The position numbers and the translations under genes were made by a program. Positions 2,604-17,153 of a stretch of DNA of 64,000 nucleotides are shown here, piece by piece. This DNA is from Chloroflexota bacterium (GTDB lineage: Bacteria > Chloroflexota > Dehalococcoidia > UBA2247 > JAXHVC01), in the NCBI GenBank assembly GCA_034189315.1, contig JAXHVC010000144.1, positions 1,026 through 65,025 of the forward strand, given 5' to 3'. The notes under the pieces are model-generated. The model saw only the letters and a program-made list of their open reading frames with translations, was not told the origin of the DNA and did no database searches. Within the stretch, counting starts at the first letter, position 1. Each line of letters starts with the position of its first letter.

Positions 2604-3590
2604 TTATACATGAAACTCGAGGACGTCACCATCCTGAAGGATGTGACCTCTTTTTACTCGTTGTCCATCGTATTTACCTGAGCCCCAAAGTACTGCATAC
2701 TTCAGTTGTTGGCGAAAATCCTTATGAACCGCTGCTGCTGCCTCCTCTACCTTGCTACCTTTCTTGAGAATAAAGGGTGCGGTAGTATCTGTCTTAGAAC
2801 CTGGAGCTTTAGTATATACTCTAATAATATCCAGGGTGTGAAAGAGTGCAGCACCCAGTTGGTCCAGCCCTGTCATTTCCTCGGCAGAGGTTGGGACAAT
2901 GGGGAGTTTCTCCCCATATATTTGCCTTAGTTGATCCAGCCTTTGAGCGGAACCTTCAAGGTCAGTCTTGTTGGCCACGATCAATGCCTTTTTTTCAGTA
3001 CTTCCGGGTATGGACTCCTGTCTGTTTCTATTCTCTAGTACGAGCACTCTTCGGTTTTGAAGTTCTTCTAAAATGATATTCATTTGATCCAAGGGATCTT
3101 CACCGAGGTCGATTACCAATAGGAGGGCATCTGCATTCCTGAAGGTGTTGTTCAACCATGCTCGCGCATTGCGATTGGTTGGAGCAGGTGCGTCTACGAG
3201 CTGTATTTGAATGTTCTCATACTTCATCATTCCGGGGATTAGAACCTGTGTCGTGAATGGGTAGGGCGCGGTATCGGAGGTTGCCTCTGTTACACACGTG
3301 AGTAACTGGGATTTTCCTGCATTGGGGAGGCCCACTAGTACTACTTGCCCCGCACCTTCTTTTCTGATCCGATGCGTATCCCCCTTCCTGGTAGTAGCAT
3401 ACTGCTTCTCTGCCTCCTCAGTTAGCTTGGCAATTCGTCTCCTCAAGTCGGCATGGAGTTTATCTGTGCCCTTGTGTTTGGGCATGATTGCCAACATGGT
3501 TTGCAATGCCTCGATCTTCTCTTCGGGATCGGTGGCACTACGATATCGTTTTTCTGCTTCGTGATATTGTGGTGGCAGATTTGCTGGCAT
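2604..3590 (-). CDS. DRG/Obg-superfamily GTPase with C-terminal TGS domain (COG1163-like)
   Basis: G1 motif GLPNAGKS, a switch Thr (FTTQ) and a C-terminal TGS-like segment (VYTKAPG...DGDVLEF). 328 aa. Confidence 0.6.
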   Translation of the reverse strand: MPANLPPQYHEAEKRYRSATDPEEKIEALQTMLAIMPKHKGTDKLHADLRRRIAKLTEEAEKQYATTRKGDTHRIRKEGAGQVVLVGLPNAGKSQLLTCVTEATSDTAPYPFTTQVLIPGMMKYENIQIQLVDAPAPTNRNARAWLNNTFRNADALLLVIDLGEDPLDQMNIILEELQNRRVLVLENRNRQESIPGSTEKKALIVANKTDLEGSAQRLDQLRQIYGEKLPIVPTSAEEMTGLDQLGAALFHTLDIIRVYTKAPGSKTDTTAPFILKKGSKVEEAAAAVHKDFRQQLKYAVLWGSGKYDGQRVKRGHILQDGDVLEFHV

Positions 3591-5505: not shown

Positions 5506-5778
5506 ATGCGCAGAACGGGTGGATTTAAGGGATTGGCCGAATTCGAAGCCTTTGCCAAGACTCTAGAGGAGCAAGACTTTCATGTTGAATCCAAATCATT
5601 TGGACTACTGAAGCTGTTCAATGTAAGAGCGGATAATCTATGTGTGGAGCTTCAGTTACGAGAGGCGAATGTCCCGGATGAAGAGGATAGTTTGACTCCA
5701 AGGGATTATCAGCTACTGGAACTGATAAAGCAGAAATATAGGACTGAGGGAAGGCCTAAGATGCAGTTCTCATGTTAA
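5506..5778 (+). CDS. hypothetical small protein (90 aa)
   Basis: ORF preceded by AAGGAG about 8 nt upstream of the ATG. No family recognised. Confidence 0.35.
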   Translation: MRRTGGFKGLAEFEAFAKTLEEQDFHVESKSFGLLKLFNVRADNLCVELQLREANVPDEEDSLTPRDYQLLELIKQKYRTEGRPKMQFSC

Positions 5779-5983
5779 TACTCGTACAGAGAGTGGTAGG
5801 TTATCTTTCATGAACGATATTTATGACAGTCAAATTGGTCTATATGAATAATCATCGAGTGGGGATCGGACTGAATGATTGCTATGATGGGTAGCGCTAA
5901 TCCCAGTTAGTATTGTAATATTAGATGTAGTTGCCCAGTTATCTAACATGTGATAGGATTACTTTTAGCTGAATAAATACTCT

Positions 5984-6160
5984 TGGGGTGCCCGATCGTG
6001 AGTGAGGGCTCAAATGGGTAGCAAGATCGGTGAGATTCCGGCACAGTCCCGCCTACTGTATATAGTCAGAACGCCAGCCCTAACAGTTGATACATCTCGC
6101 GGAGAAGGGGATTGAGATATGGTATATAACCCCCCTTACTCTAGTGAGTGGGGGGTTTTT
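5984..6160 (+). promoter_or_regulatory. cobalamin riboswitch 1 (aptamer about 5984-6082 plus its own intrinsic terminator)
   Basis: GGTGCC...AGGG...GGTGAGATTCCGGCACAGTCCCGCCTACTGTA followed after only 3 nt by the B12-box-like AGTCAGAACGCCAGCC. This matches the conserved core (GGUGnnAAUCC...CCCGCnACUGU...AGUCAGG-CC-GCC) of cobalamin riboswitches and is the compact form without a long P6 extension. Terminator hairpin CCCCCC..GGGGGG plus T5 at 6130-6160. Confidence 0.75.
6130..6160 (+). terminator. intrinsic terminator (expression platform of riboswitch 1)
   Basis: CCCCCCTTACTCTAGTGAGTGGGGGG stem-loop followed by TTTTT. Confidence 0.7.
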
Positions 6161-6212
6161 AATTACCAGCTATTATACTGATGCAATACTCTAAATCGTA
6201 TATATTGATGTA

Positions 6213-6468
6213 GGGGTGCCCGAACGTGAGCAAGGGCTCAAATGGATAGCAAGACCGGTGGAATTCCGGCACAGTCCCGCCTACTGTAATAGTCAGAACA
6301 CTAGCCCTTACTTCCTTCCTGGTTATTAGGATACCATTGGCCATAGTAGTGCCTAGCGGTAATTAGCCAGGGAAACATGCCTCCGCGGAGAATGGAGGAT
6401 GGGATTGACTGATTTAATCACAATGTTAGCAAATCCCTTTTGTTCTCAGGAGCAAAGGGATTTTTTTT
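6213..6468 (+). promoter_or_regulatory. cobalamin riboswitch 2 (aptamer about 6213-6310, expression platform to the terminator at 6433-6468)
   Basis: Second near-identical aptamer (GGTGCC...GGTGGAATTCCGGCACAGTCCCGCCTACTGTAATAGTCAGAACACTAGCC). A TATATT -10-like hexamer sits at 6201-6206. The terminator TCCCTTTTG..CAAAGGGA plus T8 lies immediately before the btuF-like start. Confidence 0.7.
6433..6468 (+). terminator. intrinsic terminator (expression platform of riboswitch 2)
   Basis: 8-bp stem with loop TTCTCAGGAG followed by TTTTTTTT. It overlaps the ORF-track TTG start at 6440, so that start is unlikely to be real. Confidence 0.7.
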
Positions 6469-6490
6469 AATGTGTGGTAGGAGGTTGAGA

Positions 6491-7414
6491 TTGAATAGGA
6501 TTGTTTTTATGATTCTCGTTACAATTATAGCCCTGCCGATTATGGTTGTGGGTATTGCCTGTGAGGAGAATGCCCCAGGGAATATCGTTGACGATTTGGG
6601 GAGGACGGTGAGCGTGGATGAAACCCCGGAACGTATTGTCTCATTAGCACCAAGTATAACCGAGATACTCTATGCCTTGGATCTTGAGGATAGGATAGTT
6701 GGAGTGACGTCATACTGCGACTATCCAGATGCAGCCGCATCCAAACCCAAGGTTGGTGGTTTTTCTACCGTGGACCTAGAAGCTGTTGCTGCAGCAGATC
6801 CAGATGTTGTATTTGCAGCCAACATCCATAAATCAGAAACCATACCTGCCCTTGAGGATCTTGGATATGTAGTAATTACGTTGGCGCCTGAGACTATTGA
6901 TGATGTTCTGGATAATATCGCCTTGGTCGGAGATATTACCGGGGAAAGCCAATCAGCGAATACCTTGATTTCTGATATGACTGCGCGTATTAAAGCTATC
7001 TCTGATGTTACTGGTGATCTGTCTCAATCTCAAATGCCTCATACACTGTATGTTACGTGGCATGATCCCATATATACAGTGGGCTCTGGAACTCTCACTC
7101 AGGACTTGATTGAGAAGGCTGGTGGTATAAACGTAGCACATGATATATCTGGACACGGAGTTATCAGTCTAGAGAGTGCTGTGGCGCGTAATCCTGGAGT
7201 TGTCATTGCCTGTACAGGGCATGGCAGTTCGGAGGATGAACCTTTTGAATGGGCCTTGTACTCTGAAGTGCTTTCGACGATTGATGCCCGTGAGACTAAC
7301 AATGTATATCAGGTCGATGCCGACCAAGCAACGCGTGGAGGGCCTAGAATAATAGAGGGTTTAGAGTGGTTTGCATATTTCCTTCATCCTGATTTATTCG
7401 ATGCACCGGCGTAA
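6491..7414 (+). CDS. btuF: periplasmic corrinoid/siderophore-binding protein of ABC transporter (BtuF/FecB family), probable lipoprotein
   Basis: SLAPSITEILYALDLEDRIVGVTSYCDYP is a classic BtuF-family signature. The signal peptide ends in a lipobox-like VGIAC. The start is uncertain: TTG 6491 with AGGAGG 6 nt upstream, or ATG 6470, or ATG 6509. Confidence 0.75.
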   Translation: MNRIVFMILVTIIALPIMVVGIACEENAPGNIVDDLGRTVSVDETPERIVSLAPSITEILYALDLEDRIVGVTSYCDYPDAAASKPKVGGFSTVDLEAVAAADPDVVFAANIHKSETIPALEDLGYVVITLAPETIDDVLDNIALVGDITGESQSANTLISDMTARIKAISDVTGDLSQSQMPHTLYVTWHDPIYTVGSGTLTQDLIEKAGGINVAHDISGHGVISLESAVARNPGVVIACTGHGSSEDEPFEWALYSEVLSTIDARETNNVYQVDADQATRGGPRIIEGLEWFAYFLHPDLFDAPA

Positions 7415-7581
7415 GGTTCATCGAAGACGATGAATTATGTGTTTCACATCTCTTATAGTGACCAGGTAGATTCGCTAGTAAGTCTGTATTGGGTATGCTA
7501 TGGTGGCTTAAAGCCTATTGTATGGTAATAACTAGAGTTTTAGGGGGATTTTAAGGAAGTGGAGGGGATCGCTTAACCAGA

Positions 7582-8679
7582 TTGTCTAGAAACAGTGTCG
7601 AGGAGCCTCGTACAGAGGAGCAATATATTGCCCTTACGTATAATGGGCATAGACGTTTAGCTGTACTTGCCATATTGACCGCGTTGTTATTCCTGGTGAT
7701 AGGGGTAGCAGTGAGTATCGGCAGTACCCACATCCCTCTTTCTACCACATGGCAGGTGCTACTATCCAAGCTCCCCCTGATCGATATCTCTTCCGGTATA
7801 GATGAGGGTACAGATGTAATTGTGACAGATATTCGCCTTCCCAGGGTAATCCTGGCTGGTATAGCAGGGGCAGCTTTAGCAGTGGCAGGTGCTGCCTATC
7901 AAGGGCTATTTCGTAATCCACTTGCCGATCCGTTCTTAATGGGTGTAGCGTCAGGTGCAGGGATGGGTGCGGTTATCGCCATGGCTTTTACTAGTGGGTG
8001 GTTTGCTTGGCTAGCAACTGGAGTGGTGCCTCCATTTGCTTTTCTTGGAGCCCTGGCGGCAGTAGGGATTGTGTATATGGTATCGAGGGTTGGAAGCAAA
8101 CTGCCCGTGACCATCATGATTCTAGCCGGAGTTGTTGTTGCAGCCTTCTTTAGCGCGATCAGCCACTATCTGATGCTTGCAATAGAGGAACTTGCTCATC
8201 TTGGTTTGAGTTTCTTATGGGGGGCTGGACTGCAAACAGCCAACTGGCGCGAGGTTGTAATAGCTCTTCCTCTTGTTGGTTTGGGTGTGATAATCGTCTC
8301 TCTCTATGGACGTAATCTCAACGTCATGCAACTTGATGAGGAGCAGGCGCAACAGCTGGGTGTGGATGTGGAAAGTGCCAAACGCGTGCTGATTGTGGCT
8401 GCTACGATAATTACTGCAGCTGCTGTATCTTTTGCAGGGGTGATTGGTTTTGTTGGTATTATCGTTCCTCACTTTGTACGGCTTGTCTGGGGGCCAGACT
8501 ATAGATATCTTGTTCCAATATCTATGCTGGTGGGAGCCATCTTCCTTATGGTAGCCGATATGGCTCTGCGTGGATTGCCTGGATCTGAGGAGACTCCAAT
8601 CGGGGTCTTTACAGCTTTGATTGGAGGTCCCTTCTTCTTATACCTATTGCAGAAGAGAAAGGGGGAGGCCCTCTTTTGA
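7582..8679 (+). CDS. btuC: ABC transporter permease, FecCD/BtuC family
   Basis: Multi-TM protein with a FecCD-type hydrophobic profile. 4-nt overlap with the downstream ATPase gene. The start codon is uncertain. Confidence 0.75.
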   Translation: MSRNSVEEPRTEEQYIALTYNGHRRLAVLAILTALLFLVIGVAVSIGSTHIPLSTTWQVLLSKLPLIDISSGIDEGTDVIVTDIRLPRVILAGIAGAALAVAGAAYQGLFRNPLADPFLMGVASGAGMGAVIAMAFTSGWFAWLATGVVPPFAFLGALAAVGIVYMVSRVGSKLPVTIMILAGVVVAAFFSAISHYLMLAIEELAHLGLSFLWGAGLQTANWREVVIALPLVGLGVIIVSLYGRNLNVMQLDEEQAQQLGVDVESAKRVLIVAATIITAAAVSFAGVIGFVGIIVPHFVRLVWGPDYRYLVPISMLVGAIFLMVADMALRGLPGSEETPIGVFTALIGGPFFLYLLQKRKGEALF

Positions 8680-9512
8680 AAGGTGCAACAGTTGAGGTTG
8701 TTGAGCTAGAGCTTCGAGATGTTATGCTGGGTTATGGACCCAGGGTGATCCTGAAGGATATTAGCTTTGAGGTCAGGAAGGGAGAACTTGTGGGATTGGT
8801 TGGGCCCAATGGATCTGGAAAATCTACGCTTATTAAAGGCATCACCAGACTGATCCCTCTGCAATCGGGCCAAATATTGATACGGGGACAGCAGTTGCTT
8901 GGAATGAGCAGAAGCTCACTTGCTCGGAGTATAGCAGTTGTACCACAGTCTCCTGTGTTGCCGGAGTTGTTTACCTCTTTTGAGGTTGTACTTATGGGAA
9001 GGACGCCGCATCTGAAGTTCCTGCAGAGAGAAAGCAAGAAGGATGTTGGTATTGCCTGGCGTGCGATGCAAAAGACTCAAACGGATCATCTGGCCGATCG
9101 CAGAGTGAGTCAACTTTCAGGAGGTGAGCGGCAGCGACTTACAATAGCTCGCGCTCTAACACAAGAAGCGGAGCTTCTGCTCCTTGATGAGCCCACATCA
9201 CATCTCGATCTCAAATATCAGGTTGAGAGTCTGGACTTGGTAAAGGAGCTTTGTATGGATAAAGGTATGGCTGCTCTTGCTGCTATGCACGATCTAAATC
9301 TGGCGGCCCAGTATTGTGATCGCCTGGTAATGTTGGAACATAAGGGTATTCATTCTCAAGGGACCTTGGAAGAAGTTATAACACCTGATGCCATCCGCAA
9401 GGTTTATGGAGCCGAGGTGATGGTATTTCCTCATCCGGTCAACCGTTTGCCAACAACAGTCATAATGCCTCGACATACAAATAATGGTGGTAGCGAGGAA
9501 AAGCGCGATTGA
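8676..9512 (+). CDS. btuD: ABC transporter ATP-binding protein (BtuD/FecE-like)
   Basis: Walker A GPNGSGKST, ABC signature LSGGERQR and Walker B LLLLDEPT. TGA stop overlaps the cbiB ATG. Confidence 0.8.
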   Translation: MKGATVEVVELELRDVMLGYGPRVILKDISFEVRKGELVGLVGPNGSGKSTLIKGITRLIPLQSGQILIRGQQLLGMSRSSLARSIAVVPQSPVLPELFTSFEVVLMGRTPHLKFLQRESKKDVGIAWRAMQKTQTDHLADRRVSQLSGGERQRLTIARALTQEAELLLLDEPTSHLDLKYQVESLDLVKELCMDKGMAALAAMHDLNLAAQYCDRLVMLEHKGIHSQGTLEEVITPDAIRKVYGAEVMVFPHPVNRLPTTVIMPRHTNNGGSEEKRD

Positions 9513-10432
9513 TGGACTATGTGGCCATCCTGCTACTTGCCCTGGCGTTAGACATAGTATTTGGCGAGTTGCCAAACCAAGTTCATCCTGTAGCTGCGAT
9601 AGGGAGAGTTATCTCGTGGCAGCTTAGGTTTGCTCCTAAGAACAATAAAGAGGCGTTCTTCTATGGAATATTCATAGCTCTATTTACGATAGCTATATTC
9701 TCCGTACCCATCTATATCCTATTGTGGTACCTGAGGGATATCAACGCAGTTCTCTTTGTATTAGTAGGTGCAGTCTGTTTGAAGAACACATTTTCCTTGA
9801 AAGAGCTTGGTTGTGCAGCTAGGCGGGTGCAGAGCCCCTTGCGTGTGGGTGAGCTAACCAAAGCAAGGGAGGCAGTGGGGAGAATCGTCAGTCGCAACAC
9901 TTCTTGTTTGGAGAGAGATGCTGTGGTGGCTGCCACCATAGAATCGGTATCGGAGAATACCTCAGACAGCTTTGTAGCACCACTCTTCTATTTCTTACTA
10001 CTGGGAGTACCTGGTGCTTTGGCCTATCGAGTAGCCAATACCCTTGATGCGATGGTTGGATATCATGGTGAGTATGAATATTTGGGAAAGTTCTCTGCTA
10101 GAATGGATGACATCTTGAATTATATACCCTCTCGTATTAGTGGACTGTTAGTTGTACTCGTGGCAAATCTTGCACGGGGTAGTATGGCAAGGGCTTGGCA
10201 TGTTATGTGGAGAGACCATGCTAATACAGAGAGTCCCAATGCCGGTTGGACTATGTCTGCTACTGCTGGTGCATTGGGTTTGAGGTTGGAGAAAGAAGGG
10301 CAATACTCACTTGGTGATACTATCGTACCGGTATCCGTAGAAGCTATTAGCCAGGGTGTGAGAATAATGTGGCTCTCAGCATGTGTGTGGACAATAGTAT
10401 GTTCGTTCATTACATGGATGGTTCTAGCCTAG
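9509..10432 (+). CDS. cbiB: adenosylcobinamide-phosphate synthase CbiB/CobD family (membrane)
   Basis: The N-terminal LALALDxxFGELPNxxHPV motif and polytopic membrane profile are typical of CbiB. The real ATG is probably at 9512. Confidence 0.75.
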   Translation: MMDYVAILLLALALDIVFGELPNQVHPVAAIGRVISWQLRFAPKNNKEAFFYGIFIALFTIAIFSVPIYILLWYLRDINAVLFVLVGAVCLKNTFSLKELGCAARRVQSPLRVGELTKAREAVGRIVSRNTSCLERDAVVAATIESVSENTSDSFVAPLFYFLLLGVPGALAYRVANTLDAMVGYHGEYEYLGKFSARMDDILNYIPSRISGLLVVLVANLARGSMARAWHVMWRDHANTESPNAGWTMSATAGALGLRLEKEGQYSLGDTIVPVSVEAISQGVRIMWLSACVWTIVCSFITWMVLA

Positions 10433-10491
10433 TTGATTGTATTGCATAGTGGTTCAATCTATCCCAGTAGTGCATGACAGGAGGTTATGAG

Positions 10492-11037
10492 ATGACAGAG
10501 CTCTCACATCCTTTTGGCAGAGGATGTGTTCAAGTATATACAGGGAATTGCAAGGGTAAGACCACTGCGGCCCTTGGCCTGGCATTTCGTGCCATGGGCA
10601 GGGGATTCAAGACCTATATCGGCCAGTTTATGAAGGGATTGCCATATGGTGAGCTAGAAGCAGCCAAGATGACGGAGCCTCATATTACCATCGAGCAGTA
10701 TGGAAAGAATGCCTTTGTGCATGTGCAGAATCCCCCGCTAGAGGAAGATGTCGCAATGGCTTCGGTAGGTTTGTCCAAGGCGAGAGCTGCAATGCTTTCT
10801 GGTGAATACGACATAATAGTATTCGATGAGATACTCACTGCGCATGGATTTCACTTGATCACGGTTCAGGATATGTTGGATATAATTAAAGATAAACCCG
10901 ATGGGGTGGAGGTTGTATTCACTGGGAGGAATGCACCACCAGAGATAATTGCAGCAGCAGACCTTGTAACTGAAATGGTGGAGGTCAAGCACTACTATCA
11001 GAATGGGATAGAAGCACGCGATGGTATTGAGCGGTGA
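10492..11037 (+). CDS. cobO: cob(I)yrinic acid a,c-diamide (corrinoid) adenosyltransferase, CobA/CobO/BtuR type
   Basis: QVYTGNCKGKTTAALG P-loop and about 180 aa length. ATG 10492 has AGGAGG 7 nt upstream (the ORF track started at 10474). Confidence 0.8.
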   Translation: MTELSHPFGRGCVQVYTGNCKGKTTAALGLAFRAMGRGFKTYIGQFMKGLPYGELEAAKMTEPHITIEQYGKNAFVHVQNPPLEEDVAMASVGLSKARAAMLSGEYDIIVFDEILTAHGFHLITVQDMLDIIKDKPDGVEVVFTGRNAPPEIIAAADLVTEMVEVKHYYQNGIEARDGIER

Positions 11038-11161: not shown

Positions 11162-12538
11162 GTGACTGTCTCTATTCCCAGAATTCTCATTGCAGGTACT
11201 AGTAGTGGCGTAGGCAAAACCACTATAGCTACTGGTATCGTAGCTGCGTTGAGAAAAAGAGGACTGCGGGTACAACCTTTTAAGTGTGGACCTGACTATA
11301 TTGATCCCAGTTATCTATCCTTAGCAGCCGGTATTCCCACGCGCAATCTGGATAGTTGGATGATTCCACCTTACCATATGCTAGATCTCTTTAAGCACGC
11401 AGTTGTGAGTAAAGATATTGCCGTGGTGGAAGGAGTAATGGGGCTCTATGATGGTAGAGGGGGGGCGGAACTCGAGGGTAGTACTGCTGAGATCGCCATG
11501 CTGTTGCGCACACCTGTCGTCCTGGTGATCGATGTCGCAAAGATGTCTGGCAGTGCGGCTGCAGTAGCTTTGGGATATCGGGATTTGGAGCCGAATCTGA
11601 ACATAGTGGGTGTGATCTTGAATAATGTCGGTAGCGATAACCACCTACGTTGGGCTAGTGAAGCGATTGTCAAGAGAGTTGGCCTGCCAGTTTTGGGCTG
11701 TCTTCACAAGCAGGCGGAGGTCGCTTTGCCGGAGCGTCATCTTGGGCTAGTGCCTGCTATAGAGGAAGAGGTGTCCCGAGAGGCGGTAGATCGGATTAGG
11801 GATTATATAGAAGCATCTGTTGATGTGAATGAACTTCTTCGGTTGGCTAGAGTGGCAGAAGAGATTCCCGAAGCTAGTGGTAGCGGGCTTTTTCCTAAGA
11901 GGGAGGAGAGACAAGAAGTCACCTTAGCAGTTGCTCGTGATAGGGCTTTTGACTTCTACTATGAAGACAACCTAGATCTCCTCTCTGCCTGGGGAGCACA
12001 ATTACAGTACGTGAGTCCATTAGAGGACAAGGCATTACCATCTGACCTTAGAGGCCTATACATCGGTGGTGGTTTCCCTGAAATGTATGCTAGAGAGCTA
12101 TCTGCTAACAAGGCATTTCATCATTCTGTTGTGGATGCAGTACAATCGGGTATTCCTATTTACGCTGAGTGTGGGGGCCTTATGTACCTGACAGAGGGGA
12201 TAATCGATTTCGAAAAGCGCGAGCATGCCATGGTAGGGGTTGTTCCCGGTAAGTCGGTGATGAGAGACAGACTCACAAGAATGGGATACGTTGAAGCCGA
12301 GGTGCTGCGAGATACTCCTTTGGCGATCAAAGGGCAGAGATTACGGGGCCATGTATTTCATTGGTCTCAATTGCCTGCTCCAAAGGAAGGTGCAGCCTAT
12401 TGCCTCCGAAATTCGGAGCAGCAATCGGAGGGGTATGTTCTTGGCCCTTGTGATAATGTTCTTGCTTCGTATGTACATCTTCCTTTTGGCGGTGATGTTT
12501 CACTAGCGAAGCGATTTGTGGAGTCATGCCATGGATAG
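11162..12538 (+). CDS. cbiA: cobyrinic acid a,c-diamide synthase (CbiA/CobB)
   Basis: N-terminal IAGTSSGVGKTT plus FKCGPDYIDPSY (a CbiA-specific motif) and a C-terminal class-I glutamine amidotransferase-like domain. 458 aa. Confidence 0.75.
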   Translation: MTVSIPRILIAGTSSGVGKTTIATGIVAALRKRGLRVQPFKCGPDYIDPSYLSLAAGIPTRNLDSWMIPPYHMLDLFKHAVVSKDIAVVEGVMGLYDGRGGAELEGSTAEIAMLLRTPVVLVIDVAKMSGSAAAVALGYRDLEPNLNIVGVILNNVGSDNHLRWASEAIVKRVGLPVLGCLHKQAEVALPERHLGLVPAIEEEVSREAVDRIRDYIEASVDVNELLRLARVAEEIPEASGSGLFPKREERQEVTLAVARDRAFDFYYEDNLDLLSAWGAQLQYVSPLEDKALPSDLRGLYIGGGFPEMYARELSANKAFHHSVVDAVQSGIPIYAECGGLMYLTEGIIDFEKREHAMVGVVPGKSVMRDRLTRMGYVEAEVLRDTPLAIKGQRLRGHVFHWSQLPAPKEGAAYCLRNSEQQSEGYVLGPCDNVLASYVHLPFGGDVSLAKRFVESCHG

Positions 12539-13658
12539 GATTGCAGAGACTCACATTAGCAATACCTTACCTAGGACTATAAGGCCTAGGCAAGGTGTGG
12601 AATCCCTAATACCTTGTTATCATGGTGGCCCCGACTACATAGAGTTAGAAACCTATGGGATTGCTCTGGATCAGGTGAAGGATTTTAGCTCTAACACCAA
12701 TCCCTTTGGGCCACCGCCAGGTGTAAAGGAAGCCTTATCCAAAGTGGATATCTCCCAGTATCCAGATTCCAATGCCACTGAACTCAGGCGTGCATTGACA
12801 TTGAATCTAGGAATTGGGTTGGATAGTATCATCGTGGGTGCGGGGTCGACGGAGTTGATACGTCTCTTGGCACTAGCCTATTTGGGAGTGGGAGATAAGG
12901 TGGTTATTATTGATCCTGCCTTTGGTGAATATGAGGCTGCGTGTGCGGTAGTGGGGGCATCTGCTGTTAGGCACAATATAGCACGGAATAAGGGATTTCA
13001 ACTGAAGGTGAGGGGAATCGTCTCCTTGATTAAAAAATCATCACCCAAGATTGTTTTTCTCTGCAATCCGAATAATCCCACAGGACAATACCTCGAGAAG
13101 CATGAGGTTGAAACCATATTGCAGGTGACTGAAGGCGGCCTGGTTGTCCTCGATGAAGCCTATATCCCCTTTGTAGAAGAACCCTGGTCGTCGTTGGACC
13201 TGCTGGCATCTGGAAACCTGGTAATCCTACGTTCGATGACCAAGGATTTTGCGCTCACCGGACTTCGCTTGGGATATGCTATAGCTTGGCCGGAGATCAT
13301 CTCCAACTTGAGGCGAGTATGCCCGCCATGGAACGTTAATATACTGGCGCTCAGAGCAGGTATGATTGCTCTGGAAACTGGTGAGTATCTCAATCGATGT
13401 GCAAAGGAACTGAAACAGGCGAAGGACTACCTAGTCGAAGAACTATCTAGTCTAGGGTACCGCATCCTTCCATCGAGGGCTAATTTCTTTATGATGGAAG
13501 TGGGCGATGCTGCAAAGTTGAGGCAAGGGCTGCTAAAACAGGGATTCTTGGTGCGGGATTGCACATCTTTTGGTTTACCTCGATATGTGCGCATCGCACC
13601 ACGCACGATACCGGAGTGTGAGGCTTTGGTTGAGGCAATACGTGAGAGTAATTCGTGA
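12516..13658 (+). CDS. cobD: PLP-dependent class II aminotransferase-fold enzyme, probably L-threonine-O-3-phosphate decarboxylase CobD (alternative: HisC)
   Basis: Aminotransferase class I/II fold with the PLP lysine in SMTKDFALTGLRLGY. The CobD assignment comes from position inside the corrinoid operon. The start possibly lies at the Met 5 codons downstream. Confidence 0.55.
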   Translation: MWSHAMDRIAETHISNTLPRTIRPRQGVESLIPCYHGGPDYIELETYGIALDQVKDFSSNTNPFGPPPGVKEALSKVDISQYPDSNATELRRALTLNLGIGLDSIIVGAGSTELIRLLALAYLGVGDKVVIIDPAFGEYEAACAVVGASAVRHNIARNKGFQLKVRGIVSLIKKSSPKIVFLCNPNNPTGQYLEKHEVETILQVTEGGLVVLDEAYIPFVEEPWSSLDLLASGNLVILRSMTKDFALTGLRLGYAIAWPEIISNLRRVCPPWNVNILALRAGMIALETGEYLNRCAKELKQAKDYLVEELSSLGYRILPSRANFFMMEVGDAAKLRQGLLKQGFLVRDCTSFGLPRYVRIAPRTIPECEALVEAIRESNS

Positions 13659-13976: not shown

Positions 13977-16900
13977 ATGAAGGTTGTCGAGTCTACAAGT
14001 AGTTCAGGAATGGATAGGGTGATACTACAGATTATCAGTATAGTTGTAGTATTGGTCTTATTATCGGCCAGTGTTATCACTACCGGATTGTTGCAGATTG
14101 CCCGTGGCGCAGATGATGTCTTGGATGAGTTGATGATATATGACGATGCCTTGCAGAATGGATTTGCCTACAACGAATGGGGAGAGGGGTGTCTTGTCAG
14201 CCTGTCCTATGAGGATGCTGCAGTGGGCACATATTCTTTAGCAACAGACCTTAATAACTATCTCACACTATTCCTGTACACAGACACGACTTTCGCCAGG
14301 GGCACCTACTCAGATGTGGAATTCTACATTCGGGGAATCTCTCCGGTTAACGAAAGCTTCGATGTTCGTCTTGCTTCGAATAGCTATACCCGGATAGGTA
14401 GCCCTCTGCCCATAGGCGACTACGTAGACGTTTCGGATAGTTGGCAGCATGTCCGGATTCCTCTGAAGGATTTTGGAGTTGAACCGGATGCTTTGGTTGC
14501 GGGATTGGTGTTCAGGGACAATGCAGGGGTGACAGGAAGGGGATACGTCCTCCTGGATAGTATCCGATTTGTGGAGCTAATGGATACCACTGCACCCGAG
14601 ATTACTTCAGCGAGTGCCATCAGCCTCGATCAGGTTACGCTCACGTTCAATGAGAAGATGGATCCGATTGGTGTGGCGGATGTCAATAGCTATTCGATAA
14701 CCTCAACTACAGACATCAACTATGAGAGTGGGAGGAATCCTGTCTCTTCGTCGTTGCTGACGAATGAATGGCAGGCTCTATTAACAGTCAGCCCAGAACT
14801 TCAAGATGGGAATACCTATACAGTAAGTGTCAATGGTCTTCAGGATCTGGCCGGCAACACCATACCGCCAGATTCTGAGGTTTCTTTCGATGTGGCAATT
14901 GAAACCGTGACCCTTTCGGTCGATGCCGAGGTTAGTATCTATCCTTTTAATTCGATGATGCGCGGTTCTGCCTTGGTTAACTGGATGCATTCGTGGAACA
15001 GGCCTTTCCCTGGAGAGATAGAGGGGCTGGTGGAACTCACCAAGGTCCTCAATCCCGGCATTATGAGGTATGGTGGAGGGCTATGGGTCAACGGTGTTGG
15101 CTTCGATCGCAGCAATAGCCACAGATCCGGCGATGCCTGGACCTATGTCGATCCCGATACTGGCGATGAATACTGGTACAACCACTGCCTAAGAGCAGAC
15201 GAAATCGATTCCTTTGTCAGTTTTTGTGAGCAGGTAGGGGCAGAACCGTTGATACAAGTGAATCTGGCTTCCTCCTCCGATGGGCATAGCAATCCTAAGA
15301 TGTGGGCAGACCTTGTAAGATACTGCAATGTAGACAATGACTACGATGTGAAGTATTGGGAGCCGGGCAATGAGTGGGACTACGCTGGCATTCTGGATGA
15401 AAACGAATATGCGCAGCGCTTCGTTACCTATCAAGATGCAATGCTAGAGGTAGATCCGACGATCCAGTTCATGGGCCCGGTATCCGCGGGCTTCCACACC
15501 GACTGGTTTGATCCCCTGCTATCTGCTACACACGATGCAGGACACGACTTGGATGTCCTGGACTGGCATTGGTATCAACTCCTCAATTACAGTGGGGATT
15601 CGAGGCACAACGCTCCTGAGAACCTCTTCAAATACGATGACAGCGGCGAGGCTGATTGGCTGCGCAGATATCGCCGTGTGTATGCCGAAGACATGATGAA
15701 TGTGGTAAAGAACGATTATCTGCCAGGCTACCCCAACATGTTCACCGCGCTAACTGAGCTTGGCACCGGTGTAGGTCAAGATGCACCCATGCAAAGTGAT
15801 TTCGCTGCTGCCTTGTGGCTTGCCGATATGCTGGGAAGGTTTTCATATAATGGACTTGACATATGTACTACCTGGGACCTCTATGATGTCACCTACTGGG
15901 GGCATACCTATCCGGATGATTCCATGTACCCGGATGATGTGTATGTGCGACCTATATACTACACAAAGCTGATGTATGGCCAATACTTCGGCGATCAGAT
16001 GGTCGAGAGCAGCACAAGCGATCCGGAGAAGATGTTAACCATCTGGGCGAGTACTGATGTGGATGAGCCAGACACGCTGAAGCTCATGGTTACCAACCTC
16101 AATGAGAATTCCTGTTATGGTGTCATCAATGTTGATGGTTTTGATCTTCAAGGGGGCGAATACTATAGATTGACCAATCCCGATCCTCTATCTGGCTATT
16201 CACCATCTTTTGGTACCGTGCCCAATCAGGATTTAATGCCAAATGTGAATGGGTATCAGATAGAACCGAGTCATACAGCAGATACTATTATTGCCAGTAT
16301 TCCCCCAATGGACATTAGTGTTATTGGATCGAGTTTTGAGCATTATTTCCCTGCCCATTCCGTTACCTCAATCATTCTAGAGGGCACGTATGATACTGAG
16401 GATAGTACTCCTCCGGTAATCTCCCCTGTGCAAGTGATAGATGCCACTTCATCGTCGGCTACTATTACGTGGACCACGGATGATATGAGCGATTCCGCGA
16501 TCAACTACGGTGAGACAGAATCCCTAGGCACTATAGTGTCAGATTCCAGCCTTGTCACCAGTCACACTATGGAGTTGACGGGCCTATCCAGCAACACAAC
16601 CTACTATTATCAAGTCACTTCAACCAATTCCGATGGCTATTCCTCAACCTCTGGTCTCTACACTTTCACTACGCTTGAATCTGAGCCTGAAGTCAATAGA
16701 CTTCTCGTCTATGATGAATCCTTGGTGAATGGCTTCTCGTACAATGAATGGGGCGAGGGTTGTCTGGTCACTACCTCCTATGCTGATTCAGCATACAGTG
16801 GGTCCTACTCGTTGGCCACAGATTTGAATAATTACAAAACGTTGTTTCTCTACACATACGACATGTTTGATGTGGCCGAGTATTCAGACTTGGAGTTCTA

Positions 16901-17153
16901 CATTCGTGGGAACACGCCGCCCAATAACACCTTCCGTATCAAACTTGCCACGAGTTCCTATGGATCAACTGGTAGTTCGCTTCCTATAAGCGACTACGTG
17001 ACCGTCGGGGAAGAGTGGCAGTATGTGAAGATTCCTGTCGGCGCGTTTGGTGTGGCTCCCGGGACGCAAATCGCGGGATTTCGCTTGAGGGACGATACGG
17101 GCGGGAACGACTCTGGGTATGTATTGCTTGATGAAATACACTTCAGTGAGTAG
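13977..17153 (+). CDS. membrane-anchored multidomain putative glycoside hydrolase (GH-A clan-like TIM barrel) with Ig-like and FN3 domains and a duplicated terminal ~150-aa putative carbohydrate-binding module
   Basis: N-terminal signal anchor (IISIVVVLVLLSASVITTGLL). The YWEPGNEWD NE(W/P)-type acid/base motif lies in the central domain. An FN3-like segment (ATITWTTDDMSDSAINYGETESLGT...TYYYQVTSTNS) follows. A ~150-aa module at aa ~50-200 is repeated at the extreme C-terminus (NGFAYNEWGEGCLVSLSYEDAAVGTYSLATDLNNY vs NGFSYNEWGEGCLVTTSYADSAYSGSYSLATDLNNY). Confidence 0.6.
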   Translation: MKVVESTSSSGMDRVILQIISIVVVLVLLSASVITTGLLQIARGADDVLDELMIYDDALQNGFAYNEWGEGCLVSLSYEDAAVGTYSLATDLNNYLTLFLYTDTTFARGTYSDVEFYIRGISPVNESFDVRLASNSYTRIGSPLPIGDYVDVSDSWQHVRIPLKDFGVEPDALVAGLVFRDNAGVTGRGYVLLDSIRFVELMDTTAPEITSASAISLDQVTLTFNEKMDPIGVADVNSYSITSTTDINYESGRNPVSSSLLTNEWQALLTVSPELQDGNTYTVSVNGLQDLAGNTIPPDSEVSFDVAIETVTLSVDAEVSIYPFNSMMRGSALVNWMHSWNRPFPGEIEGLVELTKVLNPGIMRYGGGLWVNGVGFDRSNSHRSGDAWTYVDPDTGDEYWYNHCLRADEIDSFVSFCEQVGAEPLIQVNLASSSDGHSNPKMWADLVRYCNVDNDYDVKYWEPGNEWDYAGILDENEYAQRFVTYQDAMLEVDPTIQFMGPVSAGFHTDWFDPLLSATHDAGHDLDVLDWHWYQLLNYSGDSRHNAPENLFKYDDSGEADWLRRYRRVYAEDMMNVVKNDYLPGYPNMFTALTELGTGVGQDAPMQSDFAAALWLADMLGRFSYNGLDICTTWDLYDVTYWGHTYPDDSMYPDDVYVRPIYYTKLMYGQYFGDQMVESSTSDPEKMLTIWASTDVDEPDTLKLMVTNLNENSCYGVINVDGFDLQGGEYYRLTNPDPLSGYSPSFGTVPNQDLMPNVNGYQIEPSHTADTIIASIPPMDISVIGSSFEHYFPAHSVTSIILEGTYDTEDSTPPVISPVQVIDATSSSATITWTTDDMSDSAINYGETESLGTIVSDSSLVTSHTMELTGLSSNTTYYYQVTSTNSDGYSSTSGLYTFTTLESEPEVNRLLVYDESLVNGFSYNEWGEGCLVTTSYADSAYSGSYSLATDLNNYKTLFLYTYDMFDVAEYSDLEFYIRGNTPPNNTFRIKLATSSYGSTGSSLPISDYVTVGEEWQYVKIPVGAFGVAPGTQIAGFRLRDDTGGNDSGYVLLDEIHFSE

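Follow-up and report, generated by a model that had tools for sequence, protein, structure and literature searches.

Cobalamin riboswitches standing in tandem have been described before. Sherlock et al. (2022) reported 26 adenosylcobalamin (AdoCbl) doublets, and that paper credits the first report of a tandem AdoCbl riboswitch to Sudarsan et al. (2006) (PMC9481103). Tandem riboswitches of the same class with separate expression platforms give a steeper, more digital, 'pseudo-cooperative' response, a principle shown for tandem thiamine pyrophosphate (TPP) riboswitches, and Table 3 of the same paper gives no tandem for the aquocobalamin (AqCbl; RF01689) class (PMC9481103). The other closely related system is the yvrC/btuF riboswitch of Bacillus subtilis, an 'atypical' hybrid of the Cbl-I and Cbl-II cobalamin classes that precedes btuF-btuC-btuD and an adenosyltransferase gene (Chan et al. 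2020; PMC7367189) and that in vivo responds only to adenosyl-bearing cobalamin (Kennedy et al.; PMC9600662). Here we analyze the leader of a btuF-like gene in a 64,000-nucleotide (nt) stretch of DNA of an uncultured member of the Chloroflexota, class Dehalococcoidia (contig JAXHVC010000144.1, positions 1,026 to 65,025; below, the window). A sequence-only reading of the window had proposed two cobalamin riboswitches in tandem, each with a terminator of its own, before a btuFCD/corrinoid operon. Covariance models, fold, covariation, complementarity of the loops L5 and L13, gene identities and the loci of relatives all agree with this proposal, and the layout of two full riboswitches in series before the operon is confirmed.

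The two aptamers form a direct repeat, with 91% identity between 5985-6060 and 6213-6288 (76 nt) and 87% identity between 6062-6084 and 6289-6311 (23 nt). The conserved core GGTGAGATTCCGGCACAGTCCCGCCTACTGTA is present at 6029-6060 and the B12-box-like element AGTCAGAACGCCAGCC at 6064-6079 of unit 1, with its unit 2 counterpart at 6291-6306. The whole window was scanned against Rfam 15 with the gathering score (GA) as the cut-off. RF00174 matched unit 1 (5969-6096; 32.5 bits, GA 31.5, E-value 1.7e-4) and RF01689 matched unit 2 (6233-6308; 36.7 bits, GA 36.5, E-value 4.9e-5), which places both copies, by small margins, in the cobalamin riboswitch clan (Rfam CL00101); nothing besides these two aptamers was matched in the window even at E-values up to 0.5. 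A lineage-specific covariance model, R1, scored 105.9 bits for unit 1 and 115 bits for unit 2 and has no other match in the window. These results support both RNAs as complete cobalamin riboswitches, with the following paired elements (P) and loops (L):

5983-6083, forward strand: aptamer 1, with covariation in the family
5983-5989 with 6077-6083, forward strand: P1 of aptamer 1
5990-6009, forward strand: P2 hairpin of aptamer 1
6015-6017 with 6074-6076, forward strand: P3 of aptamer 1
6025-6042, forward strand: P4 of aptamer 1, with L4 at 6031-6037
6045-6046 with 6053-6054, forward strand: P5 of aptamer 1, with L5 UCCCGC at 6047-6052
6056-6058 with 6067-6069, forward strand: P6 of aptamer 1, with a loop of 8 nt
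6210-6311, forward strand: aptamer 2
6210-6217 with 6304-6311, forward strand: P1 of aptamer 2, 8 base pairs
6218-6237, forward strand: P2 hairpin of aptamer 2
6275-6280, forward strand: L5 UCCCGC of aptamer 2, whose P6 loop has 7 nt

The fold was examined in a family alignment that joins window and Dehalococcoidia aptamers of the compact type, ten in all, and on which the canonical P1, P2, P3, P4, P5 and P6 were imposed. Under this structure 86.5% of the alignment cells are paired, and 16 of the 29 pairs have changed at both positions, a number reached by none of 500 shuffles and compared with 3-6 in slid controls. The covariation is located in P1, P2 and P4, the P2 hairpin alone having two-sided changes across the family in seven of its eight pairs. 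Both window copies show the canonical junction and L5-L13 complementarity, and they differ from each other by compensatory change in the outer P1, where U-A and C.C of unit 1 correspond to A-U and G-C of unit 2. The alternative P1 register of RF01689 (AGGGCU/AGCCCU) was discarded for want of covariation (113 to 319 of 500 shuffles did as well), which P1 plus P2 does show. A P5 hairpin suggested by RNAalifold (ACAGU/ACUGU) is as invariant as the canonical P5 (AG/CU) and P6 (CUG/CAG), which were preferred to it. Minimum-free-energy folds of the whole units are not more stable than those of shuffled sequences (z -0.10 and -0.82), which says little about an RNA type that has tertiary structure and alternative folds.

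The four-way junction of P3-P6 with the B12 box, closed by P1, maps onto both copies. Like Cbl-I riboswitches, both units carry a P2 module between P1 and P3; the large P6 extension of that class (P7-P11) is absent, P6 being capped by a loop of 7-8 nt, and in the unit 1 alignment 70 RF00174 model positions of this extension are replaced by 2 nt. With the Cbl-IIa class (RF01689, the env8 hydroxocobalamin type) the window aptamers share the P3-P6 junction, the short-loop P6 without extension and the P13 kissing loop, whereas the J1/3 bulge that replaces P2 in Cbl-IIa is absent and a covarying P2 hairpin stands there instead. Compared by secondary-structure description, the B. subtilis yvrC/btuF riboswitch has the same combination of a P2 module with a very short P6, the L5-L13 kissing loop, a terminator-type platform and a hairpin in the linker between aptamer and P13 (found here in unit 2), together with the same gene context of btuF-btuC-btuD and a corrinoid adenosyltransferase. 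It differs in being single and in bearing a small P7 hairpin on P6, a hairpin missing from the window aptamers and present in two of the related loci (L010 and L012). Because they join a Cbl-I-like P2 module to a Cbl-IIa-like P6 with a 7-8-nt loop, the window aptamers are, by analogy, Cbl-I/Cbl-II hybrids like the B. subtilis btuF (yvrC) riboswitch. Their ligand is most likely an adenosylated corrinoid, which would also fit the adenosyltransferase gene of the operon. The earlier typing of the aptamers as compact and non-AdoCbl-selective therefore holds for the missing P6 extension and is not supported for the ligand class, since a covarying P2 marks the hybrid type, whose B. subtilis relative is AdoCbl-responsive.

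Each aptamer is followed by an expression platform in which a P13 stem with loop L13 precedes a terminator:

6095-6110, forward strand: P13/L13 of unit 1, UCUC-GCGGAGAA-GGGG, a weaker version of the family module
6130-6160, forward strand: terminator 1, with stem 6132-6141/6146-6155, loop UAGU and T-run 6156-6160
6316-6373, forward strand: linker hairpin between aptamer 2 and its P13, from the minimum-free-energy fold
6380-6398, forward strand: P13/L13 of unit 2, composed of CCUCC (6380-6384), GCGGAGAAU (6385-6393) and GGAGG (6394-6398), a canonical P13
6394-6405, forward strand: predicted antiterminator strand of unit 2, GGAGGAUGGGAU
6431-6468, forward strand: terminator 2, with core stem 6436-6445/6450-6459 and T-run 6461-6468

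The terminators had been placed earlier at 6130-6160 and 6433-6468, correct within 1-3 nt. A search for terminator-like hairpins with T-runs found these two (6132-6155 with T5 and 6436-6459 with T8) against 0.8 expected in shuffled sequence. Nearly all aptamers found by R1 have the same platform module, CCUCC-GCGGAG(N2-4)-GGGGG and, after it, a terminator built as AAAUCCCC...CUC-loop-GAG...GGGGAUUUU, and P13 is kept in about 70 loci. L13 GCGG is complementary to L5 CCGC in both window units (6099-6102 and 6049-6052 in unit 1). In three related loci (L013, L016 and L017) L5 is CCUGCC and L13 is GCAG, a compensatory change from C-G to U-A, and one further locus (L006b) is a single-sided exception with GCAG opposite CCGC.

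In energy calculations the complete platforms fold as P13 plus terminator (-24.0 kcal/mol in unit 1 and -28.6 kcal/mol in unit 2), and platforms lacking the 3' arm of the terminator pair the 3' strand of P13 with the terminator 5' arm (-13.8 and -20.1 kcal/mol, respectively). In unit 1 this role would fall to GGAGAAGGGG, which also serves as the predicted antiterminator strand by pairing with 6132-6141. By these calculations the P13/terminator and antiterminator pairings are mutually exclusive in both units. Ligand-stabilized kissing should favor termination, so both units are predicted to be OFF switches, by analogy with the known behavior of cobalamin riboswitches (PMC7367189). The distance from the aptamer end to the T-run is about 149 nt in unit 2 and about 72 nt in unit 1, the difference being due to the linker hairpin. 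This hairpin was also considered as a mobile repeat, and no further copies of it were found in the window.

The two-unit, two-terminator leader is conserved. Close relatives of the locus were collected by a BtuF protein search followed by contig look-ups, which gave metagenomic contigs with BtuF 64-82% identical, and the leader recurs upstream of the same operon in four of them:

L089: unit 1 aptamer at 2457-2586, unit 2 aptamer at 2695-2819, btuF start at 3001
L091: unit 1 aptamer at 652-780, unit 2 aptamer at 892-1018, btuF start at 1131
L093: unit 1 aptamer at 2581-2708, unit 2 aptamer at 2855-2981, btuF start at 3001 as called
L096: unit 1 aptamer at 70-198, unit 2 aptamer at 314-439, btuF start at 609

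A fifth contig (L092) holds unit 2 and the remainder of a unit 1 cut by the contig end. In the four complete leaders each unit has its own P13 and terminator. The terminator after unit 1 is present in L091, L093 and L096, and in L089 it has one A.C mismatch in the stem, which hid it from the scanner. The second terminator of L093 is located at 3063-3095, which puts the true start of btuF after the called one. The unit 1 and unit 2 orthologues have traits specific to their position, namely the promoter geometry before unit 1 and, in unit 2, the common P1 UGUAGGGG/CCCCUAC and the linker hairpin. The latter is retained in four of five genomes and in L089, L093 and L096 has the same position but not the same sequence. 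In the tandem clade alone, with an alignment fitted to the model, 87.6% of cells are paired and six pairs show two-sided changes, a number reached by 6 of 500 shuffles. As judged from these sequences, the duplication predates the divergence of the tandem clade and both units have been retained since.

Outside this clade R1 finds about 90 further aptamers in related loci. Among 88 loci with the same aptamer type (29 genome loci from a BtuF genome scan and 59 metagenome loci from a scan with the L5 core pattern) none has two aptamers closer together than 400 nt, and the BtuF relatives found in reference genomes, all from Dehalococcoidia or Chloroflexota metagenome-assembled genomes (MAGs) and at most 50% identical, lack the tandem. 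The single riboswitches of other Dehalococcoidia share the aptamer type, the P13/terminator module and the promoter geometry with the window. Where such distant relatives have two aptamers, these lie at a distance of 1.3-1.7 kb and have different target genes, one standing before btuF and the other before a gene for a secreted protein of about 1089 amino acids (aa). A second compact riboswitch after btuF, preceding this gene, is present at L043:4658-8156 and also in L006, L013, L016, L017, L030, L032, L076 and L078. The protein has a signal peptide, the segment 'LKWTRIDTPG' and sub-threshold matches to BNR and Sortilin-Vps10 models, and is predicted to be exported, propeller-like and under B12 control. 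It recalls the surface B12 binders of Bacteroides. No homologue of it was found in the window; a 1058-aa open reading frame (ORF) at 13977-17153, considered as its counterpart, proved to be unrelated.

The structural features of tandem pseudo-cooperative riboswitches are thus present in the window and kept in L089, L091, L093 and L096. As in the tandem AdoCbl riboswitches, the leader consists of two units, each an aptamer with a terminator, and has no ORF between them; the gap between the aptamers (about 125 nt) is under the 300-nt criterion, and both units are predicted OFF switches before a single operon. The difference lies in the aptamers, which are compact, without the P6 extension, and one of which is assigned to RF01689. 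The arrangement itself has therefore already been described, and the window is a further example of it, unusual in its hybrid subtype and in the split of near-identical copies between RF00174 and RF01689.

Elements that bear on transcription of the leader are as follows:

5931-5959, forward strand: candidate promoter of the leader, with -35 TTGCCC (5931-5936), a 17-nt spacer and TG-extended -10 TAGGAT (5954-5959)
5969-5978, forward strand: leader motif CUGAAUAAAU, just 5' of aptamer 1
6161-6209, forward strand: inter-unit spacer, with a motif remnant GCAATACTC at 6183-6191 and TATATT at 6201-6206

The geometry of the candidate promoter, TTGCnn-N17/18-TAnnnT followed after about 9 nt by AYTGAATA, recurs before unit 1 in L089, L091, L093 and L096, and also before single aptamers in about 50 other loci. 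Nearly every aptamer of this type has the motif AYUGAAUAG/A 5-15 nt 5' of its P1. The motif is found as well before unit 2 of L091, L093 and L096, where no promoter was found, and for this reason looks like an element acting at the RNA level. In unit 2 of the window and of L089 it is shifted by an insertion of about 19 nt. Short ORFs called across the leader (6159-6344 on the reverse strand of the window, L089:2503-2730 on the forward strand and L093:2756-2983 on the reverse strand) vary in strand and position between genomes and were most likely called in error over structured RNA.

Taken together, the leader very probably is a single transcript on which two full cobalamin OFF riboswitches follow each other and act independently. 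Transcription from near 5966 would yield one leader with both units. In a corrinoid-bound aptamer, L5 (CCGC) would kiss the loop of P13 (GCGG) and keep P13 closed, so that the G-rich 3' half of L13/P13 could not invade the terminator and transcription would stop, at about 6160 in unit 1 and about 6468 in unit 2. In the absence of ligand, the G-rich strand would pair with the terminator 5' arm as an antiterminator and allow read-through. Only transcripts that pass both checkpoints would reach btuF-btuCD-cbiB-cobA-cbiA-cobD. Read-through would then be the product of two probabilities, which would reduce leak and steepen the response to intracellular corrinoid.

Several observations weigh against this reading. 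The Rfam scores exceed GA by only 1.0 bits in unit 1 and 0.2 bits in unit 2, and the two window copies formed part of the R1 training set. P5 and P6 are invariant in the family alignment and therefore give no evidence from covariation, and the kissing-loop covariation probably reflects a single evolutionary event. The candidate promoter fits 8 of 12 consensus positions, which is under the threshold of the scanner. The P13 of unit 1 is weaker, with two G.U pairs, and only five U's follow its terminator, so that the termination efficiency of this unit is uncertain. Finally, more distant Dehalococcoidia have single units, and in one member of the clade with BtuF 62% identical and the same btuF-btuC-btuD and cbiB genes (L095) neither R1 nor Rfam finds an aptamer in 2755-3000.

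The alternative that survives best, although unlikely, is that the units differ in threshold or corrinoid preference, the pair widening or staging the response, with two thresholds or as a NOR gate with two inputs. It draws on the unequal distances from aptamer to T-run, where the longer decision window of unit 2 would lower the ligand threshold of a kinetically controlled switch, on the linker hairpin kept in four of five genomes, and on the weaker P13 and T-run of unit 1. However, the core junctions and loops show no consistent difference between unit 1 and unit 2 orthologues: the variation in L4, in the P6 loop and in J6/3 falls inside each orthologue set, not between the sets, and L5 and L13 are the same in both units. 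In the lack of a consistent core difference, sensing of the same ligand by both units is the simplest view. A bolder proposal, which we consider doubtful, is a coupled two-threshold device in which both aptamers act on the last terminator, and which would be the first conserved tandem described for cobalamin aptamers without P6 extension. Cross-unit kissing, of aptamer 1 with the P13 of unit 2, is conceivable because L5 and L13 are identical in both units and L13 of unit 1 is consumed in the antiterminator of a read-through transcript, and the two thresholds are suggested by the conserved long linker hairpin with its longer decision window in unit 2; both ideas are speculative.

It is improbable that unit 2 has a promoter of its own, which would make the two units parallel transcription units and not serial checkpoints. 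Independent transcription had been suggested from the -10-like TATATT at 6201-6206, and a weak TTACCA-N16-AATACT at 6163-6190 is retained in L089. Yet the hexamer is CATATG in L089, the closest relative, and a transcript starting about 7 nt past it would lack the three outermost base pairs of P1 in aptamer 2. As for AATACT, it more plausibly represents what is left of the leader motif ACUGAAUAC after displacement, the motif being intact before unit 2 of L091, and at the scanner threshold no promoter-like site was found in the inter-unit region of five loci. Unit 1, moreover, would in that case control nothing, yet it is conserved. The suggestion of independent transcription from TATATT is therefore not upheld, and serial transcription of both units is the better reading. 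Still less probable is that one copy is a decaying duplicate and the other the sole regulator: the 87-91% core identity could suggest a recent duplication and the unit 1 P13 is degenerate relative to the family consensus, but the cores, P13 modules and terminators of both units are intact down to 64% BtuF identity, and the P1 changes are compensatory. Least credible is an action in trans of the transcript terminated at about 6160 (aptamer 1 with its platform) as a small RNA or corrinoid sponge, as known for some terminated riboswitch products, since nothing specific favors it beyond the stable product of about 195 nt with a terminator hairpin expected under ligand, no complementary target or protein-binding motif was seen (no search aimed at one was made), and the serial arrangement accounts for the conservation unaided.

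The genes downstream of the two serial riboswitches, whose Pfam and NCBIfam identities agree with the btuFCD/corrinoid operon proposed earlier, are as follows:

6491-7414, forward strand: btuF-like substrate-binding lipoprotein, TTG start, Shine-Dalgarno sequence GGAGG at 6480-6484, Pfam Peripla_BP_2 (1.3e-29)
7582-8679, forward strand: btuC-like permease of the FecCD type, best NCBIfam match BtuC
8676-9512, forward strand: btuD, corrinoid-type ABC ATPase (Pfam, NCBIfam)
9509-10432, forward strand: cbiB, over the curated NCBIfam cut-off
10474-11037, forward strand: cobA/cobO-type adenosyltransferase, CobA NCBIfam score just under the curated cut-off
11162-12538, forward strand: cbiA/cobB a,c-diamide synthase, CobB NCBIfam score over the curated cut-off
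12516-13658, forward strand: cobD/hisC-like aminotransferase, NCBIfam CobD/HisC score just under the curated cut-off

The BtuF protein is identical over its full length (307 aa, 100%) to an NCBI protein of a Chloroflexota MAG; a look-up of the exact CobA-like protein gave no match. These annotations indicate that the operon functions in corrinoid uptake and salvage. The R1 search of the region between btuF and btuC, where distant relatives have their second switch, found no third aptamer. This gap, which at 145-250 nt is constant across the clade, contains a small conserved hairpin, GGTTCATCGAAGACGATGAATT at 7415-7436, immediately past the btuF stop codon, with a weak T-rich tract behind it; L089 has kept the hairpin, which may be a partial terminator or a stabilizer that sets the btuF:btuCD ratio. 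Upstream of the leader, a 90-aa ORF at 5506-5778, between a gene for a nucleoside triphosphate (NTP) transferase and the leader, has no Pfam or NCBIfam match, and L089 has it in synteny at 1996-2268.

Aptamers of this compact kind, with a P2 module but lacking the P6 extension, are widespread in the class, yet they score at or under the Rfam thresholds: five of eight aptamers of the tandem clade fall below GA (units 1 and 2 of L089 and of L091, and unit 1 of L093). Because of these scores and of the split between two families, surveys of riboswitches and of their tandems under-count them. The clade provides single and tandem forms of the same switch for natural comparison, which could be used to study the effect of tandem arrangement on dose-response. 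Dehalococcoidia and their relatives rely on scavenged corrinoids, and the conserved double checkpoint before an uptake and salvage operon shows tight gating of an expensive system in one clade.

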